A stretch of 63,703 nt of DNA, the filler included, from Reclinomonas americana ATCC 50394 (lineage: Eukaryota): NCBI GenBank assembly GCA_048213135.1. It is 16 parts of 16 records of this genome, joined end to end, with 100 filler letters (N's around TTAATTAATTAA, not from the genome) between each part and the next. Parts side by side here need not be neighbours in the genome. Positions count along the whole stretch, not along the records: positions 59,143 to 60,320 come from AFZH01020517.1; 15 more parts are not named here. One strand, written 5' to 3'. The notes beneath the pieces are model-generated. The model was not told the DNA's origin and made no database searches. It saw only the letters and a program-made list of their open reading frames with translations. The translations under genes and the position numbers were made by a program. Below, piece by piece: positions 32,525-63,703 of this stretch. How positions within the stretch are numbered: the first letter of the stretch is position 1; every line of letters begins with the position of its first letter.

Positions 32525-34690
32525 ATGCAAAAGCGCCACGCATTACTCGTGTGCGTGTGCACACTGGCCGTGCTGGTATGCACATGGCCTTTATCGTCTG
32601 CCCACGTGTCAACAGCGCCCTCACTGCTCGTCAACACCACGTGCGGACTCGTGCAAGTTGAGAGAGACACCGCCACACAATCTCTCTCCATTTTTGCTCA
32701 CACGCGCTGCGGGTGGTGACCACACAGGGTCGTCTGCAGAGCACAGTAGTGGGAGGGCACTCAGTGGCCTCCTTTGAGAACATCCCGTACGGCAAGGCGC
32801 CTGTGGGCGACCTCCGATGGCGCGCACCCGAGTCGGCGGATTGTTGGGGTCCCACGCGCATTCTCGATGCCACGCGACTGGGACCACGCTGCGTACAGAG
32901 CGACGGCTCTGATGGGAGCGAGGACTGTCTACAGCTCAATGTCTACATGCCCGCGACAAGCAGCAATGCCACGAGTGCCAGCTTGTTGCCGCTGCTGGTC
33001 GACATTCACGGAGGAGGCCTGATGGATGGGTCCGCGGTGGACGAGTACGTGCAGAACTTTGTGGCCACGACCCCCTGCGTGGGCGTGACCATCAACTATC
33101 GCTTGAATATCTTTGGCTTCCTCGCCGTGTCGGAGCTCAGCGAGGAGCAGGGAGGCACCTCGGGAAATTACGGCATGTTGCGTGCACTTTGCGAGTGTGA
33201 GTGTGAGTGTGGGATGTTCACGTGACAGTCATACTTTATGCCTCGTGCGCAGTCTCGACCAGCAGCTGGCGTTGCGGTGGATTCGCGACAACATTGCCAA
33301 CTTTGGCGGCGATCCGTCGCGCGTCACCGTGTACGGCCAGTCCAGCGGTGGCACGTCCATCTTCGCGCTGATGTCGAGTGCTGCCTCTCGTGGTCTCTTC
33401 CACCGCGCCATCTCCTTGTCGGGGTCGCCAAACATTACCATTTCGATGCACGACGCAGAGAAGCAGAACGCGGGCATTCTCGACGCGGCCGGCTGCGGCT
33501 CGTTGAGCTCGTGGTCGGCGCGGCTGACGTGCATGCGACGAGCGTCGATCAAAACGGTGAGTGTGCACAGACCCTCAACATATTTTCTCTCTTTTTCCGC
33601 ACTCATGACGGCACCACGCAGCTCACGCACGCCATCCCGCACTCGTGGGACACGCCGGGCATGTGGAACATGCCAAAGAGCGCCAACGGCATGCACTACG
33701 CCGGTCTACCGGTGGTCGACAGGCGTGTCATCACTATGCCTTTTGGTGACGCCCTCGCCACTGGACTCGTCGATGTGCCGTTCATGTTTGGCAACATGGG
33801 CTACGAGTCGGTGCGTTGCGCGCCGTGTCGTCCAACCACAAGTCGCAGCACTCACCTTTTTCGCGTTGAGCAGGATTACGGACCGGAGGTGCGGGTGGCC
33901 GGCTACACTTCGGCACAGTGGAAGGACTTTATCACCAAGTCGTTTACCGCGTACAAGAATCCGAGCGGTGTGGCGGCCACTGTGTTGGCACAGTACAGCG
34001 CCGAGGCGAACAGCGATCCCCAGATGGCGTTCGATGTTGCGCGCTGGTCGCTGGCGGATCACCCCTCCTACTTGCTCTCACTGTCGCCGTGCAGGCCATT
34101 GTGTCCGACTATGGCCTGTCGTGTGCCAGCATCGCTCTCGTGCGACGTGCACACGCCACGGGCGCGTACAAGAGTCCAATCTACGTCTTTGTCAACAGTT
34201 GAGTGGTGGTTGGTGCGATCCTGCTCTCGCCACGCACCCTCACTACGTATGTTGTCTCTCGGGCAGACTGGAACCCGGGAACGCCCATTTTCGTCTCTGA
34301 TAATTATTATGCGCGGTACGCCTTCCACACGTGGGATCAAGTGAATGGGCTGCAGGTGAGCTCCGCCCCGCTGCGCTGCGCGACACAAATTGCGAGACAC
34401 TGACATCCTCCTCTGTCCACGTGCAGCTGTGGGGTCCCGACAGCGGCTACATGCCCACGCCCACCGACGAGCGCCACTCGCAATTCCTGCGCACCATGTG
34501 GGCCCAGCTGATGACCGATGGGCAGCTGGACCAGGCCGTCTGGCCGCCCTTCTACCGCTCCTCAACCTCGTCCTCCTTCACCACCATGGTCATGCACGAT
34601 CCGCCACAAGCCGTCGAAAACTACAAGGCCGACACGTGCGCCATGTGGGAGGCACTCGGCGTCGACCAGAGGTACTGGTGGTGCGACTAA
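32525..34690 (+). CDS. Type-B carboxylesterase/lipase (secreted)
   Basis: Signal peptide; [82 protein letters not shown]. Confidence 0.95.
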
Positions 34691-39183: not shown

Positions 39184-41645
39184 ATGAGCGCTGCCAGTGA
39201 GGCCTTGTCATCCTCCTCGTCCTCCTCTGCTGCAGGCGCGAGTGGCAGTGGCAGTGGAGGAGGAGGAATGGAGCAGAGTGGCGACTTGTTTGATTTGGCG
39301 CGTGAGAGGCGAGAGTTGCGGCAGTCGCTGGAACGCGACCCGAAGAAGGCTGTGCCCACCTTCCAGCAGACACGCGGTCTCAAAGATATGCTTTGCGATC
39401 CCTTTTGCCTTGCGCATGTGTGTGTGTGTGTGTGTTTATCTCATGCATTGCGTGTGTGTGTGTGTGCATTTGAGTACTGCCTTCTGCCACGCATGCGCTG
39501 GAGTTGTCGGAGCTGCTGGAGGTGCCAGGCTCTGACATCTACAAGGGACTCTTTGTGCATCTGCGCGCACTGGTGGAAGACGGCATTCGCAGCTGCGACC
39601 AGGAAAAGTTGTGTGTGCTTGTCAATCAATGAGAGGGAGTGTCTTCGATGCCTCCTCACCACGCCGAGTGCAGACTGCTGCCGCTGTTGGAACGCACTCT
39701 ATGTTTCCTGTCGCACGAAGAGCTGCGAGTGATTCCCATCTCCATTCTGCTGAAGTTGGATCGCATCGAGGAGCACGTGCTGAAGAGACTGGTGACCGAC
39801 GAACGAGGTCAAGCCGTGCCGGTGCGTCTCGCGCCGACTGCTGTTGTCGTGAGATCGTTGTGAGAGTGTCTGATCAGAGAGGGGAGACACGCAGTCGTTG
39901 CCGGCTGCGCTGCCGATTGAGGTCAAGCGTCGCATCTGGGAGAACGACAAGGATCGCTTTCGACAGGAAGTGTTGCGTTTTGTAACTGGGTGCCTGCCTT
40001 GTCTTCTCGCATGTACCCACTTCGCGATCTGTTGTGTGCACCAGTTTTCCACTCTTTCACCGGTACTTGGAGCACGAGAGCAAGATGACGGCGGAGAAAG
40101 TGGAGGACCCGCGGTTACGTCGCCAGGAGAACGACGTGTTGCGCACGCTGGTTGAAATGGTCGGCACCTCCACCCGCCTGTACGAGTACATTCGCACGTT
40201 TGTGCGTGGCCTGTACGTGCGCTTCACGCAGAGCGCCTTTTGCACACTGCGCTACGAGTTGCTAATGGCGTTTCACGACGAGAATCGGAAAGAGGTGCGT
40301 GCATTCATGTGCTTGTGTGCTGGTCCACCTCGTGCTCATCTGTTGTGTGTGGCGCCAGATTCTCGAATCCGACAAGTGTTACAAGTTTGCGTGGGGCCTC
40401 GACGGCTGGCAGCGTGTGTGGCTAATGGATCAGAAGCGCGTGACGGATCTCACCGAGTTCCTGGCGCCTCTGGAGGGCGGTGCGTGCGCATTTTTTCATG
40501 TCACCGAGTGAGCTGCGTGAATTCACTGCGGCGCCGGCGTACAGCCGACGGAGGTATTTGGTGGGGCGACATTGGCATGATCATGGCCACGCCGTATGTT
40601 CTTGACGTCGCCGTCGGCAACATCTACGAGCTGCTGCAGCGACTGATCGAGCAGCAGAAGCTGCCGCGAGTTGCGGCCGCTCTCCCCTTTTTTTCCCCGT
40701 CCTCTTCATTGAGCGCTCTAACTCGCGCGCGTCGCGCTTGCTCACCAAAAACACAGCACGACAAGGTGCTCCTGTTCTTGTGTCGACTGCTGACACTTGC
40801 CACGCGAGCCCTCAGCCTCATCAAGGAGGGCAGCGGTCGCTTCGTCGAGATCAACGCCAACATTGTGCACAAGTTCCTGCCGGCACTGGTCGGCGTGCTG
40901 GTGGACGACAAAATGCGAGAGCAAGAGGGCGATTGTCCACCGCTGGATCCCGACCTCCCGAGCCTGGCGGCCTCGGACCCAGTGGCGGCGTTGGTCTGTG
41001 TAGCGCAGCTGTGTGCGTCTCGATTTATCGTTCTTTGACCGTTGTGCTGGCTGTGGGTGCGTAGATCTATCTGGAGCACGCGCTGCACTGGGTGGAAGCC
41101 GACGATGTGGAGCGGTTGCGCGAGGTGTTGCCGAGTCTGCTCACGCTCGACAGCTCGACCATGGTCCACACGCACTTTTACGACAAATTGCTGTGGAAGT
41201 TGTGGCACAAGGTGCGCACACTCCTGTCCGCACGCACACAACAATCGGGGTGTCGTATTCAACAACAGGCGTGCGCTTATTTGTGCAGGAATGGTGTGAA
41301 ACGGCGCGGTTGGTGATTGAGGAGTTCTTCTTGCGCAAAATCGACGACTACGCCAATGTGCTGGAACCGCTGCTCACTATGTTGTGTCACGTTGCATCCT
41401 CGTATCCCGCCGACCGGCTGGAGGAGTACATGCGACGATGCCGCGAGAAGAGGCCGCCTGCCGAAGGCGACCAGCAAAAAGCCTTTGACTCGCTGGTGGC
41501 GCAGCTGCAAGCTGCCGTCGTGCCCGTGCGACGGCGGTCCAGTGCGTCGGCCAGTGGTGTGCCGGGCAGCACGCCAACCCCCACGCCGACGCCACATGTC
41601 ATACCCGCGGCGTCGACGTTCAGTGGCGAAGAGCTCCCGCAATAA
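39184..41645 (+). CDS. NELFB: Negative elongation factor B (COBRA1)
   Basis: DPKKAVPTFQ, LPIEVKRRIWEND, RRQENDVLRTLVEMVGTSTRLYE, FCTLRYELLMAFHD, CYKFAWGLD and WGDIGMI match conserved NELF-B blocks. Confidence 0.88.
39386..39477 (+). other. Candidate AT-AC (U12-like) intron in NELF-B
   Basis: Starts ATATGCTTT and ends TTTGAGTAC; removal gives RGLKVPSATHAL, colinear with the NELF-B NGVLLPSLQSAL block; a GT-AG alternative (39377-39474) exists. Confidence 0.5.
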
Positions 41646-44269: not shown

Positions 44270-47200
44270 TCATCCGACCTCGTGGTGTTTTGTATCTGCT
44301 AATACCTCGCGCTCCACGACCCACTTCGTCACCACCTTGTTGAAATCCTCTCGCTTGAACGGCTGGCAGAGGAGAGAGAGTCGAAGCCAGTGTCAGTGTT
44401 GACGTATAACGAAGCAGTGTCAACAGTCCACAGCAGTACCTTGGTGAGCACATGGTCCATCCCACACGCAATACAGTACTCGATCTGTTCCGGCTGCGCA
44501 CTTGCAGTCACTGCAACTATCGGCGTCCCTGTACGAGAGAACGAACGACCAAGGTCAGAAAAAAGGAGTGCAATCATGCAACGCTGAATCAAGCCGTAAC
44601 TGAGTAGGCCGCACTGTTCCTCGACGACACGAATTCTCCTCGTAGCCTCGTATCCATTCTGCCACACGCAGAGACTTGACGGTGAGAACCAAGGCAGACA
44701 AAGCACAGTTGCGCACACACACACACACCATCACCGGCATCATGCAATCCATCAGTACAATATCGTAGGGATTGCAGGCTGAACACGCAAACGCCACGAC
44801 GGCTTCCTTGCCATTCGACACAGTGGTGACATCGCATGGCGGTAATTTCTCGAGTTTGCTCAGCATGCACTGTACAATTCGCCTATTCACCTGCACATAG
44901 CACACCGATAAGGACATGCAACTTTGTCGACGCAGTAGATGCACTCTCGGTGCACGCAACATTGTTGTCCTCGGCAAACAAGACGCGAACGGGTCTTCGT
45001 CGTGGCCATGGTGAGTCGTCTGCTTCCGGGACTGCTTCTGGCGTCGTCGAGGCTGCAAGAGGTGCGTTCGAGCTGCCAGCAGTCGCCTCCACCGCGGTCC
45101 ATGTGGGATGATGCACAATGGCCGAAGCAGCGGGTGCCGATTCTCTGGGCGACGTGGCAGGCGACGATGGCGCCGCTGGCGCAAGTGTACTTGGTCTTGG
45201 TGAGGTGGGTGGAGTGACAATGCCCATGTCCAGAAACGGTGAGTTGTGATCCAAGCTGAACCGCCGGAGGCACTGCAAGTTGCAGTGTGACAGATGATTA
45301 ATCTTAACCACTGATCACACGAAGCGTAGGGATTGACAACAAGTAGCAAACCAAGTCGGAGCTCCACGATACCACATCCACCGGAACCTCTACGGAGAAC
45401 ACGGATCCGACACCAACTGAACTGGCGACCGAGATGCTGCCGCCGAGCAGTCGAATAATCTACATGTACCGGTATACACAATCCGCGAAGATAAATGAGT
45501 AACTGCGTCAGTGCACTCACAGCGGCGAAACGCACCGATTCGCAGATCGGGAGTCCGAGGCCAGTGCCTGTGACCACTGACTGGTTGTACGCCGAAATGT
45601 GTTCACCAATCTGCACGAAGCATGTTACATCAGCTCATTTGCCAACAAGTATTCGACCAGCAGGAGTGGAGACGTACCTGAATGAAAGGCTCAAAGATGA
45701 CGCTCAAGTGCTGTGTACACGCCAGTGTCAGCAAAAGGAGGACGAATCACTTGCACTGCCAACATACCTCTTCGCGAATACCCGGCCCGTCGTCCACAAT
45801 GTCAAAACGCACGCGTGCCGAAGAGCCCGCCGGTGTGTCGCCGTCAGGTCCATCGCTCGCACAGTTCCAAACATCTACGCGCACCCAGGAGCGCGCGTAC
45901 TTGACGGCATTGTCGACGAGGTTGAGCAACACCTGTGTTAAGATTAATACCACATCAGTCATCATCGCACCGCTACGCACAGTCAGCGAAGACATGTTTC
46001 CCCCCACCTGGCGCAGCCGATGCGGATCCGACCGAACAACAGCTGGCGGCAGGTACAGCTCGGGCGTATTGACGGCTGCCAGACTCGGTCGCCGTGACGG
46101 ACGATCGGACGATTGCAGTTGTGGCTGCTGTTCCGCATGCAGGAGCACTGGTGTCGGTGGTGACACGATCGGTGAGTGCATCCCGGACCGTGTTGACAGG
46201 GGGGATCCGGACGAGTGATGCTCGCCGGTTGCCCGTCCGTGCTCAACCTCGACACTGCAGTCGTCGGTGTCGTGATCACCCATTGAACTGGACAGTGACA
46301 AGTGGCGGCACTGTGCGCTGCCGCCCCTCAAGCAGCTTCTGCGCTCCACCGGCTGGGAACCAGCAACGGCGTGGCTCAGGGTGGAGGTGGTCGACGACGA
46401 CGGGCTGTGTGGTGCGGATTCGGGTTTGCCCACAAGCATCATTGCTGATGACGACGTGTCCAACGTCTCGAAGTCGGACCAGCGTTGATTGTGTGCGACC
46501 TTGGCTCCAGCCACTCGCTCGTGCACCTGTAGCGGCGACGATCCAGTGGACAGCGGCGAGCCGGCCCTGTACGAGGCCACTTCCAGGCACGCCTCATCGC
46601 TTGCGTCTGGTCCGAGCAATACTCGGTCCAGACGTGGCGGATTCGTCGCATACCAGCGGTAGTGCAATTCGACGTGCGCACTTTTGGCCTGCTTGACAAA
46701 CATGCGCAGTGTGTTACGCACGAGCAGCATGAGATTGAATTCGCGATCCTCGCGGGTCAGACGGCCGGTCTCGGATTTCGTAAAGTCCAGCAGCTGTAAT
46801 TACACCAGTGAGGCATTGCACCGTAATCAATCAACGGTACGAGAAGAAGACAGGGACTCACATCATCAATAATACGCTGTGGGGTACACGCGACAAGGGC
46901 CATGAGTAAGCACAGGGCAAGCATCGATGAGAGTCACCACACACAAACGGACCATCAGTGACACCGATGAGTTGCGAATGGTGAGAATGTGCTCCTGTAC
47001 CAGTCATCTCAAATCAGCATCGCTGCCAACACTGTGGCCGACTTCACCGCGTACCTCTTGTGCTTGACTCGTCCGCGTCTCCTTCTCCAACAGATCGAGA
47101 ACGGCAATCACCGCGTGCATCTACGAGACAGGAAAATCAGTGGTGACAATGGAGATGCAGCATAACTGGTAGTGGAAGCAGTGCACACCGGTGTTCGCAT

Positions 47201-57830: not shown

Positions 57831-58739
57831 CGCGCGCGAAGGGAATAGTGTAATCGGGGATAGGACCGTCGGTCGGTTAACGTTGTCTGTCCGACAAATA
57901 TGGAAAGCAGGAATGGCGGGAAAACCAGTCAGCAACGGTCGTCAAACAAAGCAAAACATGAACAAAGCACCAGAGAACAACAAAGGAGAGAGAAGAGAGA
58001 GAGAGTTGCTCTGCCCGTTCCCAAGCTCACCTTTCGCCTGCAGTCGTACAGTGCGTCGAACAAGAAACAACACGATTGAGCACACTTGAGTATCGGACGT
58101 CAAACTCGGAGACAGAGATCGTGGCCGCGCAACTATTTTTCCTATGAAAGAGAAACAGAGAGCACGTGAGTCACATGATACTGTATCAAAACGTCAAACC
58201 CCACGAAGACGTACATAAGTCTGGAGACACTTCGTGGTAAAAACCCTGCACGAGAAATTTCAGTGCAGGGCGGTCAACGCTCGCACGCGACCTTGACTTT
58301 TCGCCGCCAGTGTGTGACAGTCGGAACAAAACCCGCAGGCGAGGACTCGTGCTCGGCACTTGCTGCATGCAAGAGGATCGAGTGGGAGGGAAAAACAAAG
58401 GACAACACAGATCATCAATTCAGCATTGACAACGTACAGCGAAACACACACAACCACTCACCAAAGTGCCGGCCGGCCACTGCCGCTGCGTCACAAAAGT
58501 AAAACACACCGGCGTCGACGATTACTACCCCGAAAAGGCCGCCCTGCTCAAGGGAGCAGAGAGACGTCCGGAACAGCAGTGTCATAAAACCCAAACCCAT
58601 TACAAGCGAAAGAAGGACACCGAGCACCACTCAAAAAGCAAACATAAAAGCTGGTGGTGCCACGGGGAGACTCACGTCGCACTTGCCACAGAAAACAATC
58701 AGGAGAGCAAGAGCATGTGCGGAAAGAGTCCAAGGCAAT

Positions 58740-58761
58740 CAAACACACGCAAACACACCCA

Positions 58762-58797
<36 letters not shown>

Positions 58798-59000
58798 AAC
58801 AACAACAGAACCACATCCACCAACACAGCCACAAAATCACCAACAGAACCACACATCCACAAATCGCCAAAAGAACCACACACCCACCAACACAGCCACA
58901 AAATCACCAACAGAAGTATCAAACCCACCACCAACACAGCCACAAACACACACCAATCAAACAACCCAACAAAACAACAAAACAACAAACACAAAACAAG

Positions 59001-59038
<38 letters not shown>

Positions 59039-59042
59039 GAGA
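58740..59042. repeat. CA-rich minisatellite plus (CA)n/(GA)n microsatellites
   Basis: ccaccaacacagccacaaa recurs three times (near 58818, 58884 and 58928), flanked by (CA)n and (GA)n runs. Confidence 0.85.
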
Positions 59043-59185
59043 NNNNNNNNNNNNNNNNNNNNNNNNNNNNNNNNNNNNNNNNNNNNTTAATTAATTAANN
59101 NNNNNNNNNNNNNNNNNNNNNNNNNNNNNNNNNNNNNNNNNNCAGGCCCGCATCACGTCGCCATCCATCACACCCGCAACAACAT

Positions 59186-60320
59186 CTACCTCGTGTGTCG
59201 TTGCTTCGGCCGCTTGTGTGGCGGTGCTCCTTCGTCGTTGGGATCAGAACGGTCGTGCTTTCCACCCTGGAGTGCCAATGCTGCCGGTGGCGGTGGAGGG
59301 GGAGAACTCATGGGGCCGTCCAGCATCTGATTCGCTGCTGCATCATCCCGCCGACTGCGCACACGAAGAGTGAGACGCAACGAATCATTCAGCATCGCAA
59401 GATGGCTCGACAGATAATAACTCACCCAGGTGACAGTTGTCGATCGGCGTCGCTCGGCAGAGGCCGCTGCGGCAGCTCCGGAGGCAAGGAGAAATCGAAA
59501 TCGAAATCGGGGAATGGTCGATCGACGTCGCCCAGCAGAGGCCGCTGCGGCAGCTCCGGAGGCAAGGAGAAATCGAAATCGAAATCGGGGAATGGTCGAT
59601 CGACGTCGCCCAGCAGAGGCCGCTGCGGCAGCTCCGGAGGCAAGGAGAAATCAAGATCGGGGAGTGGAGGGAGCTTAAGCGAGGAATCAATCTCCATGGC
59701 GGCGCTCCCAGCTGCTGCGGGCGCCGGCGGTGATGATTCCGATGTACGCTCAATGGCGACACAAGCGATGTTCTTCGTGGAGGAATCATCGCGCGCCACT
59801 TCGACATCGAAGAGCGGGCAGGCCGTGTTCAAGCACTTCATCTTCTTGGCACCGCCAGGGGCCGGGAAAAATGGTTCGCCACAGCTGCACAGGCGAGTTG
59901 TGTGCGCCTCAGAGCACTCCACAATGACGATGGGGGCGATGCCCAACAGGGCGCGCTTCGCGTTGATCTTGTCAATCTGTGGAAAGAGTGAGTGATGATA
60001 GAGGGTTACTGACATAGGTAAATTCCATACTACCCCGCAGTAACCCCACACAAACACAAACAAGTTCTCTCTCTCCCCTCTCTCTCTTCTCTCTCTGTCT
60101 CTCTCTCTCTCTCATACACATACACAACGTACCGCTTGTCGCAGACGATTTGCGAATCGACCAAACGCGCCGAGAAGCAAAGAGTTGGTCGTACCAGAGG
60201 TGAGAACGCGAGTCCTCTCCTCGCAGGAGCCATCGTCGAACACTCGCAATGTGTGACGAGCCGCCATCGACTGTGTCGAGTCCGAGAAAGGTGGCAAGAC
60301 GATGCAAGTGAAATGGGTCA
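59186..60320 (-). CDS. Fanzor/TnpB-like (IS607/Fanzor2-type) RNA-guided RuvC nuclease, C-terminal half, two introns; N-terminus in gap
   Basis: Exons 60320-60133, 59976-59426 and 59354-59186 give THFTCIVLPPFSDSTQSM...VLTSGTTNSLLLGAFGRFANRLRQAIDK...IVIVECSEAHTTRLCSCG...KMKCLNTAC...VARDDSSTKNI, i.e. the RuvC-II region, ExxTS-type glutamate, Zn finger and RuvC-III RD..NI of TnpB/Fanzor. Confidence 0.8.
59438..59655. repeat. 78-bp tandem repeat (about 2.8 copies) inside the Fanzor-like ORF tail
   Basis: aggccgctgcggcagctccggaggcaaggagaaatc recurs at 59461, 59539 and 59617; it encodes DFSLPPELPQRPLLGDVDRPFPDFDF on the minus strand. Confidence 0.95.
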
Positions 60321-60420
60321 NNNNNNNNNNNNNNNNNNNNNNNNNNNNNNNNNNNNNNNNNNNNTTAATTAATTAANNNNNNNNNNNNNNNNNNNNNNNN
60401 NNNNNNNNNNNNNNNNNNNN

Positions 60421-61900: not shown

Positions 61901-62560
61901 TCTGTTGTGTGTGCATGTGTGTGCCCCTCTTGATTCAAACAGTTCATCACTCCTGACAGGTTGTGTGGGAGTGTGTGCGTGAGACAGAGAGAGAGAGAGA
62001 GCAACGACAAAGAACGAGAAAGTTTGAAGACATTTCGAGCGTGCCATGTCCCAACCCCCCTCTTATGTCTCNNNNNNNNNNNNNNNNNNNNNNNNNNNNN
62101 NNNNNNNNNNNNNNNTTAATTAATTAANNNNNNNNNNNNNNNNNNNNNNNNNNNNNNNNNNNNNNNNNNNNCGCGGCCAGCTCTCTCAACTGCGCCTCTG
62201 AGAGGGCGGCGAAGGATCGTCGCCCGGCGAGAGCAGCCGAGGGAGAGAAAGAGAGGGCGCGGCGCAAGAGAAACATTGCAATGGAAATGGCCGGAAATGG
62301 AGGACAGTTGTTTTGTGGCTCGCGATCCTTGGCTTGTGTTGTTGGTGAGTTGCGCATGCTGTGTGCGAGGGGAGTAGAGGAACGGCATGCGTCGCGAGCT
62401 GAGAGCCTGCATGTTGCGTTGGAATGCAAAGTTCGGATTGCAGTGCCAATATAAAGGCGTGGCGCCGGCCGCGGCCAGGTGATGGTAGAAGCCGGTTGGG
62501 CACTTGTTCAAGGTTGAAGGTGCAACGAAGCCGACAGACGGCTGGTGCGCTCATACCTAT

Positions 62561-62772: not shown

Positions 62773-63641
62773 GTCCACCCATGCACCGGCGCCACGGCGA
62801 AGAGGAATGATAATGAAATTCAGGTTGCATATTATGGTCTGCACTCGTGGGGAGACAACCCTTTCCGAACAGACGGACTCGAAGCAATGCAAATAATAGA
62901 AACTTCACTGATCCATACACAACAATGAGCATCTACCAGTGATCGCCAACAAATTTTTACACTGCGAAATGCTTTCGTTGCGATTCACACGACGCCGTAT
63001 CGCGAGAGGGAGATCAAGCAGCTCAAATGCAAGAAGCCTGTGCGATGTATAAAGCGTGGCTACGAGCACCGACTTCAGCGACGCTGTTGCTGGAGTGGAC
63101 TGTTCGCGGAATTCAAAATCGACATCGGTCCTGATCCGATGGGCAAGCAACGGTGTGGCCACAAGCATCTCACTGTAATGGTCAATGAATGTGATCTACT
63201 CACTGTGCCGACCGTCAGGACCGGCTCGTTCCGCCGATACGAGCAATACCGTTGTCGATATTGGTTACATGTACAGTCTGCTTCTCAGCTGATTGTAATT
63301 GTGCAAGTTCCGGCTCAACACCATCGCTTGCACTTACGGTCTGGTGCACGGCTGCACACTGCACGAAGAGGAAAGCATCGAAGAACACAACGACAAGGGA
63401 CAGTTTTCATTCCGCGAGCCACACGCGCGCGAAACACACAAACACAAACACAGCAGTGAGAGCGGGAGAGAATGAGAACAGCTTCTCTTTTGCCCGTTGT
63501 TGTTGTTGTTGTTGTTCTCGTGTTGGTGTGTGTGAGTGCATGCAATGCAGTGTATGTGCCGCCAGTCAACGAAGGGCGATATGGCACGAGAGTGAGAGAG
63601 GCAGCAGAGTTGGAGGACTTGAAGTACTGGAGGTGAGGGGG

Positions 63642-63703
<62 letters not shown>

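Follow-up and report, generated by a model that had tools for sequence, protein, structure and literature searches.

The 3' third of a putative intron-containing Fanzor-type gene, with a long C-terminal tail, on a short contig of Reclinomonas americana

Structure of the gene and its contig

The window analysed here, a stretch of 63,703 nt from Reclinomonas americana ATCC 50394 with a GC content of 0.58, consists of 16 separate contigs of 1.2-14 kb that were joined artificially. One of these contigs, at positions 59143..60320 (1178 nt, with an artificial 100-nt linker on each side), carries the end of a nuclease-like gene, which we consider, with a probability of about 0.75, to be the 3' third of an intron-containing eukaryotic gene of the Fanzor type (TnpB superfamily), with a long tail. 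Fanzors are compact eukaryotic RNA-guided nucleases that are under development as genome editors.

The contigs are separated by 15 identical linkers of 100 nt (44 N, TTAATTAATTAA, 44 N), for example at 59043-59142, 60321-60420, and 62072-62171, which hold stop codons in all six frames. Because these linkers are artificial, anything that seems to cross one is an artefact. The original prediction had treated 60321-60420 as a gap to be closed; it is instead one of the linkers joining unrelated contigs, so there is no gap to close and the sequence beyond it need not adjoin in the genome. The nuclease-like contig breaks off inside the gene, leaving 5 residues ahead of the RuvC-II strand, and has no physical link to the other contigs of the window. 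The RuvC-I, WED, and REC regions are not in the window, and a search of the neighbouring contigs for missing 5' exons yielded nothing.

The three exons and two GT..AG introns proposed on the minus strand, between 59186 and 60320, were confirmed base by base, and the motifs quoted for them were all found: IVLPPF, SEAHTT followed by C-S-C-G, C-LNTA-C, RDDSSTKNI, and, at the end of the tail, a basic patch. The readable part of the gene amounts to approximately 301 codons. Exon 1 (60133..60320, minus strand), the 5' end of which is cut by the contig end, has 62 codons readable from 60318; it covers the predicted RuvC-II strand region, with the IVLPPF strand at 60286..60303 and its Pro codon at 60292-60294, as well as the helix that follows. 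Intron 1 (59977..60132, minus strand; 156 nt) has a GTACGT donor, a CAG acceptor, and one in-frame TGA; internally, it contains a (GA)n tract and a TAAC branch-like site about 28 nt ahead of a pyrimidine-rich tract. Exon 2 (59426..59976, minus strand) comprises 183 codons and 2 bases. From its 5' to its 3' end, it encodes the putative shifted RuvC-II Glu (the E of SEAHTT, 59908..59910), located six residues ahead of the first zinc-finger Cys; a zinc-finger (TNB) region (59818..59889) with the pattern C-x-C, 15 residues, C-x4-C; the RuvC-III motif RDDSSTKNI (59767..59793), with its Asp codon at 59788-59790; and then, in the same frame, a long tail. Within this tail lies a tandem repeat in frame (59439..59659, minus strand), with a 78-bp unit in 2.8 copies and 96% matches, which is translated as a Pro/Asp/Phe-rich repeat of 26 residues.

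Putative intron 2 (59355..59425, minus strand; 71 nt), as read from the sequence, has a GTGAGT donor and a GCGCAG acceptor. The unspliced protein would stop at its donor, because an in-frame TGA overlaps GTGAGT. Putative exon 3 (59186..59354, minus strand) is Pro-rich and has 55 codons; it ends with the basic patch HKRPKQRHTR (59189..59218) and a TAG stop codon (59186-59188). Both introns retain complete donor, pyrimidine-tract, and acceptor signals. When exons 1 and 2 were spliced in a script, a single continuous profile alignment spanned the junction, and these two exons thus appear to be joined by a canonical short spliceosomal intron.

Overall, the tail beyond the NI of RuvC-III is about 169 residues long. 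At least 113 of these share the open frame of the exon-2 core, so that the tail would be long even without intron 2. Among viral and prokaryotic reference proteins, the tail after RuvC-III had a median length of 10 residues and a maximum of 73, with none above 100 (238 of the 241 proteins had a recognisable motif). The tail carries no Pfam family. The terminal HKRPKQRHTR, read by eye, fits the K-R-x-K consensus of monopartite nuclear localization signals (NLSs) and is a putative NLS. Two proteins of the Fanzor2/pro-Fanzor kind from viral contigs, L131:330-1871 and L132:201-1913, are the closest to the window peptide; their tails after RuvC-III look unusually long, and neither belongs to the 238-protein tail set.

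On the opposite strand, an open reading frame (ORF) of 298 codons was observed at 59099-59995 (plus strand). This ORF, with its low-complexity Gly/Ser/Arg/Lys repeats, matches no Pfam family and is therefore most likely an artefact of the composition and the tandem repeat.

Relationship to TnpB and Fanzor proteins

The predicted protein could be placed by sensitive methods. In a language-model search of 7.7 million clusters, performed with residues 1-100 of exon 2, 21 of the 30 matches corresponded to PF07282 (Cas12f1-like_TNB). The ten best family-bearing matches were all PF07282; the top match had a score of 0.94, with 174 of 256 shared features and a recognition value of 3373, values that exceed the thresholds stated for the tool.

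For profile comparisons, we used a RuvC-III DNA motif to gather TnpB genes from viral contigs, which gave 80 loci out of 112 matching stretches and 63 ORFs of at least 300 codons, mostly canonical TnpBs. Three of the reference proteins (L045, L011, and L025) scored 65-79 bits on PF07282. One of them, L045 (P0002, from a giant-virus metagenome-assembled genome, MAG; 66 bits), carries Gly in the canonical RuvC-II position, and its Glu is shifted. Its relatives (655 found, 120 of them listed) are represented by a first alignment, A1, of 24 giant-virus Fanzor2-like proteins, in which D-P-G and Glu-x6-Cys are invariant. A G-type hidden Markov model (HMM) has 121 sequences. Scanning the viral contigs with A1 led to 31 loci, of which 10 form a second alignment, A2, and 12 the first local P-type profile. 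In A2, D-P-G and the shifted Glu are invariant and a Pro (P273) is nearly invariant at the position of the old Glu. Both groups matched PDB 9b0l_P best (E = 1.1e-12 and 1.7e-22), which is described as the Fanzor2 structure of the mimivirus TnpB-like protein L79 (PMC11832414). The A2 group also includes cyanobacterial, other bacterial, and phage members, and thereby fits the description of pro-Fanzors, which have been reported from cyanobacteria, other bacteria, and phage (10.1101/2023.08.09.552727); a larger P-type HMM has 130 sequences.

With the G-type HMM, exon 2 scored 14.2 bits, which none of 1000 composition-matched shuffles reached (maximum 5.5), and the spliced exons 1 and 2 scored 13.0 bits (0 of 1000 shuffles; maximum 9.2). 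With the 12-sequence P-type HMM, the scores were 8.1 bits for exon 1, 8.9 bits for exon 2, and 17.1 bits for the two exons spliced, in one domain over the junction; again, none was reached in 1000 shuffles (maxima of 4.5, 4.2, and 5.1 bits, respectively). The 130-sequence P-type HMM gave 9.0 bits for exon 1 (a score without a shuffle control), 11.5 bits for exon 2, and 19.2 bits for the spliced exons (0 of 1000 shuffles for each of the latter two, with maxima of 2.8 and 5.2 bits, respectively). The exon-2 ORF ranked first of the 951 six-frame ORFs of the window against the G-type profile (E = 0.012; 5.4 bits for the runner-up). When a full-length P-type profile was used, the two best of 1454 ORFs were those of exons 1 and 2, at profile positions 366-396 and 403-454 and in the correct order, while the upstream positions, including the D-P-G of RuvC-I, were matched by no ORF of the window.

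Profile-profile alignment with hhalign gave a similar picture. The exon-2 core aligned with A1 (P = 1.6e-4, probability of 50%, columns 586-636 versus residues 18-74), and the exon-2 stretch of the read-through peptide P0001 aligned with A2 (P = 6.2e-4, columns 435-492). Exon 1 was matched to A2 as well (P = 1.6e-3, probability of 16%, columns 384-428 versus residues 2-61), so that the exon-1 and exon-2 stretches adjoin on this profile in the correct order (384-428 and 435-492).

In these alignments, the Pro encoded at 60292-60294 corresponds to the nearly invariant P273 of A2, in the column of the canonical RuvC-II Glu. The Glu at 59908-59910 corresponds to the invariant E596 of A1 and E324 of A2, exactly six residues before the first Cys, and the Arg-Asp pair at 59788-59793 to the invariant R629/D630 of A1 and R356/D357 of A2, with the terminal N-I retained. 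Within the covered region, about 8 of the 10 positions that are invariant in A2 are retained, as judged by eye from the alignments. The original prediction was thus right about these residues: the aligned columns bear out a non-acidic Pro in place of the canonical RuvC-II Glu, as well as the shifted Glu and the Asp of RuvC-III. As described for Fanzors by Jiang et al. (PMC10530073), a Pro or Gly replaces the old RuvC-II Glu and function depends on an alternative Glu, which Yoon et al. (10.1101/2023.08.09.552727) place six residues ahead of the zinc finger.

The zinc finger itself departs from the references. The first knuckle has lost a residue; based on approximate regular-expression counts, its C-x-C spacing was scored in none of the 158 references with a T[ST]xxC motif. 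The second knuckle, C-x4-C, was compared in the same approximate way with 334 TnpB/Fanzor2-like references, in which the spacing was 2 residues in 168 proteins, 5 in 31, 4 in 4, and 1 in 3, with no Cys pair in 128. Since much of the clade has lost the zinc-finger Cys altogether, the odd C-x-C knuckle need not be disabling, and zinc binding seems to be dispensable in this reference clade. Many P-type members among the 334 references carry a conserved T-G-E..L-G-G-x-K stretch in place of the entire zinc finger.

Several results weigh against this assignment. The three exon peptides and the read-through peptide P0001 were searched against Pfam (including PF07282), NCBIfam, and PHROGs, with no TnpB-related match at E <= 10; the rows obtained were at chance level (ASC, E = 0.017; XF1762_fam, E = 0.14; phrog_35273, E = 0.43), and the PF07282 gathering threshold of 26.3 bits was not reached. 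Searches with phmmer returned no match in the PDB at E <= 10 and, for the first 100 residues of exon 2, none among 1,835,955,588 representative proteins at E <= 0.001; a word-seeded search among longer proteins retained 0 of 46 candidates at E <= 1. Exon 1 had no usable neighbour in the language-model search and scored -0.9 bits with the G-type HMM. The canonical-TnpB HMM gave 6.6 bits for exon 2 (reached by 2 of 1000 shuffles), -1.7 bits for exon 1, and 5.2 bits for the spliced exons (reached by 3 of 1000 shuffles), and the exon-2 ORF was not within the six best ORFs of the window with this profile. The E-values obtained with the full-length P-type profile were individually weak (0.45 and 1.2), and identity to the references was 17-32% (best value, 26 of 81 columns, with the viral protein L131). 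Moreover, several profiles were tried in succession, so the best P-values need some discount for multiple testing.

From the standard searches by themselves, the nuclease interpretation would have only the motifs to draw on. The curated models stayed blank, while the custom Fanzor2/pro-Fanzor profiles matched both exons. In absolute terms, the homology signal remains weak, at 9-19 bits. It does not merely reflect a generic zinc ribbon, because exon 1, which is Cys-free, contributes to the match, and the P-type profile that recovers it is itself mostly Cys-free. The identification of the peptide as a TnpB-superfamily C-terminus of the Fanzor type thus holds, as a prediction from sequence and for sensitive methods only. 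Among the viral and prokaryotic references compared, the nearest clade would be Fanzor2/pro-Fanzor (IS607-type), and the peptide is very diverged from every sequenced relative.

No relative of the exon-2 core was found in viral contigs (18 pattern matches) or metagenome contigs (241 pattern matches). A viral locus (L001) retrieved with the strict DNA pattern C-x-N-x2-C-x7-RDxNAAxNI was rejected as a chance match, with no ORF over the matched stretch.

Integrity and origin of the locus

In the Fanzor-type reading, exon 1 would provide the RuvC-II strand, with Pro replacing the old catalytic Glu, and a helix, and exon 2 would provide the shifted-Glu strand, the insert with the zinc finger (TNB), and the Arg-Asp helix of RuvC-III. 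Provided that the 5' part outside the contig is intact, DNA cleavage in the manner of other Fanzors would be expected, through a RuvC site built from the RuvC-I Asp (unseen), the shifted Glu, and the RuvC-III Asp; the 3' end of the element would be the source of the guide RNA that directs it. The extension of about 169 residues could be disordered, may have been added during residence in the host, and may serve nuclear import. The suggestion that the gene is possibly active or domesticated draws only on its open frames and two kept catalytic residues. In our estimate, the odds that its coding function is intact are about even.

The alternative that survives best is that the locus is a dead relic, i.e., a decaying or shortened Fanzor copy with no working protein, in which frames and splice signals survive by chance or because decay is recent; we regard this as a serious possibility, somewhat short of an even chance. 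The gene lies on an orphan contig of 1178 nt that ends inside it, its divergence is extreme (the phmmer search of 1.84 billion representatives was empty), and the first knuckle lacks one residue, a spacing not scored in any of the 158 references; however, the zinc-finger Cys seem to be dispensable in much of the clade, the second pair being absent in 128 of 334 references. In RuvC-III, the usual Asn two residues past the Asp is a Ser and the Gly/Ala-Ala positions are Ser-Thr, but both testable catalytic residues and most of the invariant A2 positions are retained. The nearly perfect (96% identical) tandem repeat within the reading frame would also fit a relic, and the 298-codon antisense frame indicates that open frames are cheap in this contig; on the other side, all three exons are open, both introns have full splice signals, and the core has a host-like GC content at third codon positions (GC3).

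A guide RNA gene was sought in the same region. Only 43 nt separate the stop codon from the contig end, and no guide-RNA-like structure was seen: the 3' 288 nt folded with z = +1.23, and 183 of 200 shuffles folded equally well or better. Nothing in Rfam came near its gathering score. The folding and Rfam results would count against an intact element and agree with a relic. Three Rfam rows on the plus strand, in the microsatellite intron, had 16-21 bits versus gathering scores of 64-100 and were read as chance matches.

Other contigs of the window bear eukaryotic genes, which allowed the locus to be compared with host sequence, although the nuclease-like contig is physically unlinked to them. 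Two host introns were placed by Pfam collinearity. One (33177-33252; 76 nt, GT..GCGCAG) lies in a carboxylesterase-family gene at 32662-34300 (plus strand; two successive ORFs matching PF00135 with E = 6e-37 and 3e-28), where it interrupts the GNYG-x-LDQ motif. The other (40295-40358; 64 nt, GTGCGT..CAG) is found in a COBRA1/NELF-B homologue at 39986-41035 (plus strand; PF06209, E = 4e-26), which would mark the source as a eukaryote with a NELF complex. The introns of the nuclease-like gene are host-like in form: with 71 and 156 nt, they are in the style of these two, and the GCGCAG acceptor of intron 2 is that of the carboxylesterase intron. The GC content was 0.46 in intron 1, against 0.56-0.60 in its flanking exons, and 0.49 in intron 2; overall, introns ranged from 0.46 to 0.49 and exons from 0.56 to 0.64. 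GC3 of the exon-2 core was 0.71, versus 0.68-0.82 in three host coding segments. The host-style introns and composition lend indirect support to residence in the host genome.

A second alternative is a domesticated host gene, in which a Fanzor RuvC/TNB module has been fused to a disordered repeat tail and a nuclear import signal and no longer has a transposon role. It could account for the host-type introns and codon position bias, for a tail that exceeds all 238 reference tails, and for the fact that no second copy was found in the 16 contigs of the window; in addition, Fanzor loci with neither inverted repeats nor transposase are on record (PMC10432273). However, a short orphan contig is more to be expected of a repeat than of a single-copy gene, and the protein, viral, and metagenome searches produced no orthologue with which to gauge selection. 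Among the literature matches listed, none concerns a domesticated eukaryotic Fanzor. We consider domestication distinctly unlikely. A bolder form of the Fanzor-type reading would make the gene a member of an unsampled, deeply diverged Fanzor lineage that was rebuilt by its host, with introns, a re-spaced zinc finger, a C-terminal repeat, and an import signal, and that may act as a domesticated, RNA-guided protein of the host, binding or cutting DNA, instead of being carried by a transposon; this is speculative and also unlikely, if slightly less so.

The contig could also be a contaminant from a giant virus, phage, bacterium, or another source with a TnpB/Fanzor2-like gene. Its detectable relatives are confined to viral contigs, giant-virus MAGs, a Caudoviricetes record, and cyanobacterial or other bacterial records, and it is unlinked to host sequence. 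Such an origin is nevertheless very unlikely, given two GT..AG introns with the length and acceptor style of the host, (GA)n/(TC)n microsatellites here and on neighbouring contigs, an exon GC content of 0.56-0.64 close to that of the window, and the absence of any close relative from the viral and metagenome contigs scanned. Finally, coincidence, in the sense of an unrelated Cys-containing, low-complexity eukaryotic stretch that mimics TnpB motifs, would agree with the blank curated libraries and direct sequence searches and with a single-sequence AlphaFold2 model of the read-through peptide that had no usable fold (mean predicted local distance difference test score of 33.8), but is highly improbable, since exon 1, which lacks a Cys pair, and exon 2 each gave a match of their own, next to each other on the profile; since exon 2 is recovered even by the P-type profile, which is mostly Cys-free; since none of 1000 shuffles attained the observed scores; and since the language-model search picked the predicted family from 7.7 million clusters.

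Some further features of the window were recorded. Contig ends (58720-59042 and 63640-63703) carry long stretches of (CA)n, of (GA)n, and of degenerate CA-rich repeats, which are probably the reason why the assembly broke there. A short ORF at 44410-44604 (plus strand) had a sub-threshold match to the transposase family DDE_Tnp_1_6 (E = 0.0017; 19 bits versus a cutoff of 25.1) and also ranked first, though weakly, against the profile of canonical TnpBs (7.7 bits). The ORF may represent the remains of a transposon. An ORF at 45747-46799 (minus strand) matched HATPase_c (histidine-kinase/HSP90-like ATPase; E = 1.3e-6).

Comparison with known systems

Fanzors with introns and NLSs have already been documented in unicellular eukaryotes (PMC10530073), so the Reclinomonas locus would be an unusually diverged addition to a known kind of gene, and it may already be included in the Fanzor catalogues that accompany PMC10530073 and PMC10432273. 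As a partial contig of 1.2 kb, the finding is a pointer for re-assembly rather than a result in itself, and the long C-terminal extension and the re-spaced knuckle, both confirmed as atypical relative to the viral and prokaryotic reference sets, would matter only if the full gene is intact and expressed. The locus also indicates that curated models miss part of the eukaryotic Fanzor diversity and that profiles of the shifted-Glu clade recover such genes.

Over the C-terminal third, the only part that could be compared, the predicted protein resembles the giant-virus Fanzor2 (mimivirus L79/ApmFz2, PDB 9B0L; PMC11832414, PMC10530073) in the order of its elements: a non-acidic RuvC-II strand, a helix, a strand with Glu-x6, a TNB insert, and the RuvC-III Arg-Asp. 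Introns, a C-x-C first knuckle, and some 169 residues of tail set the window gene apart from ApmFz2, the described NLS of which is N-terminal (residues 1-53; PMC11832414). Its distance from giant-virus Fanzor2 is reflected in the identity of 17-32% to the reference set and in the lack of a direct phmmer match to the PDB chain.

Pro-Fanzors and IS607-type TnpBs (10.1101/2023.08.09.552727, also PMC10711439) have in common with the window peptide the Pro, the spacing of Glu-x6, and a GG-x-K stretch. This likeness is drawn from the C-terminal third, the D-P-G half of the definition lying outside the contig. In contrast to the window gene, pro-Fanzor genes are intron-less, prokaryotic or viral, and end about 10 residues past RuvC-III.

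Canonical TnpB (ISDra2 type; PF07282) would be expected to share the same superfamily fold elements, and the language-model neighbours of exon 2 carry PF07282; the window protein differs in having Pro at the place of the canonical Glu, in its 6.6 bits with the canonical profile, and in giving no match to the PF07282 model at E <= 10. Among eukaryotic systems, the Fanzor1c of Chlamydomonas reinhardtii, CrFNuc, is likewise described as a TnpB homologue with spliceosomal introns, which it carries at a host-like density together with a nuclear import signal (PMC10530073). The Fanzor NLSs reported as tested in that study by Jiang et al. were N-terminal, whereas the putative NLS-like patch of the Reclinomonas protein is located at its C-terminal end.

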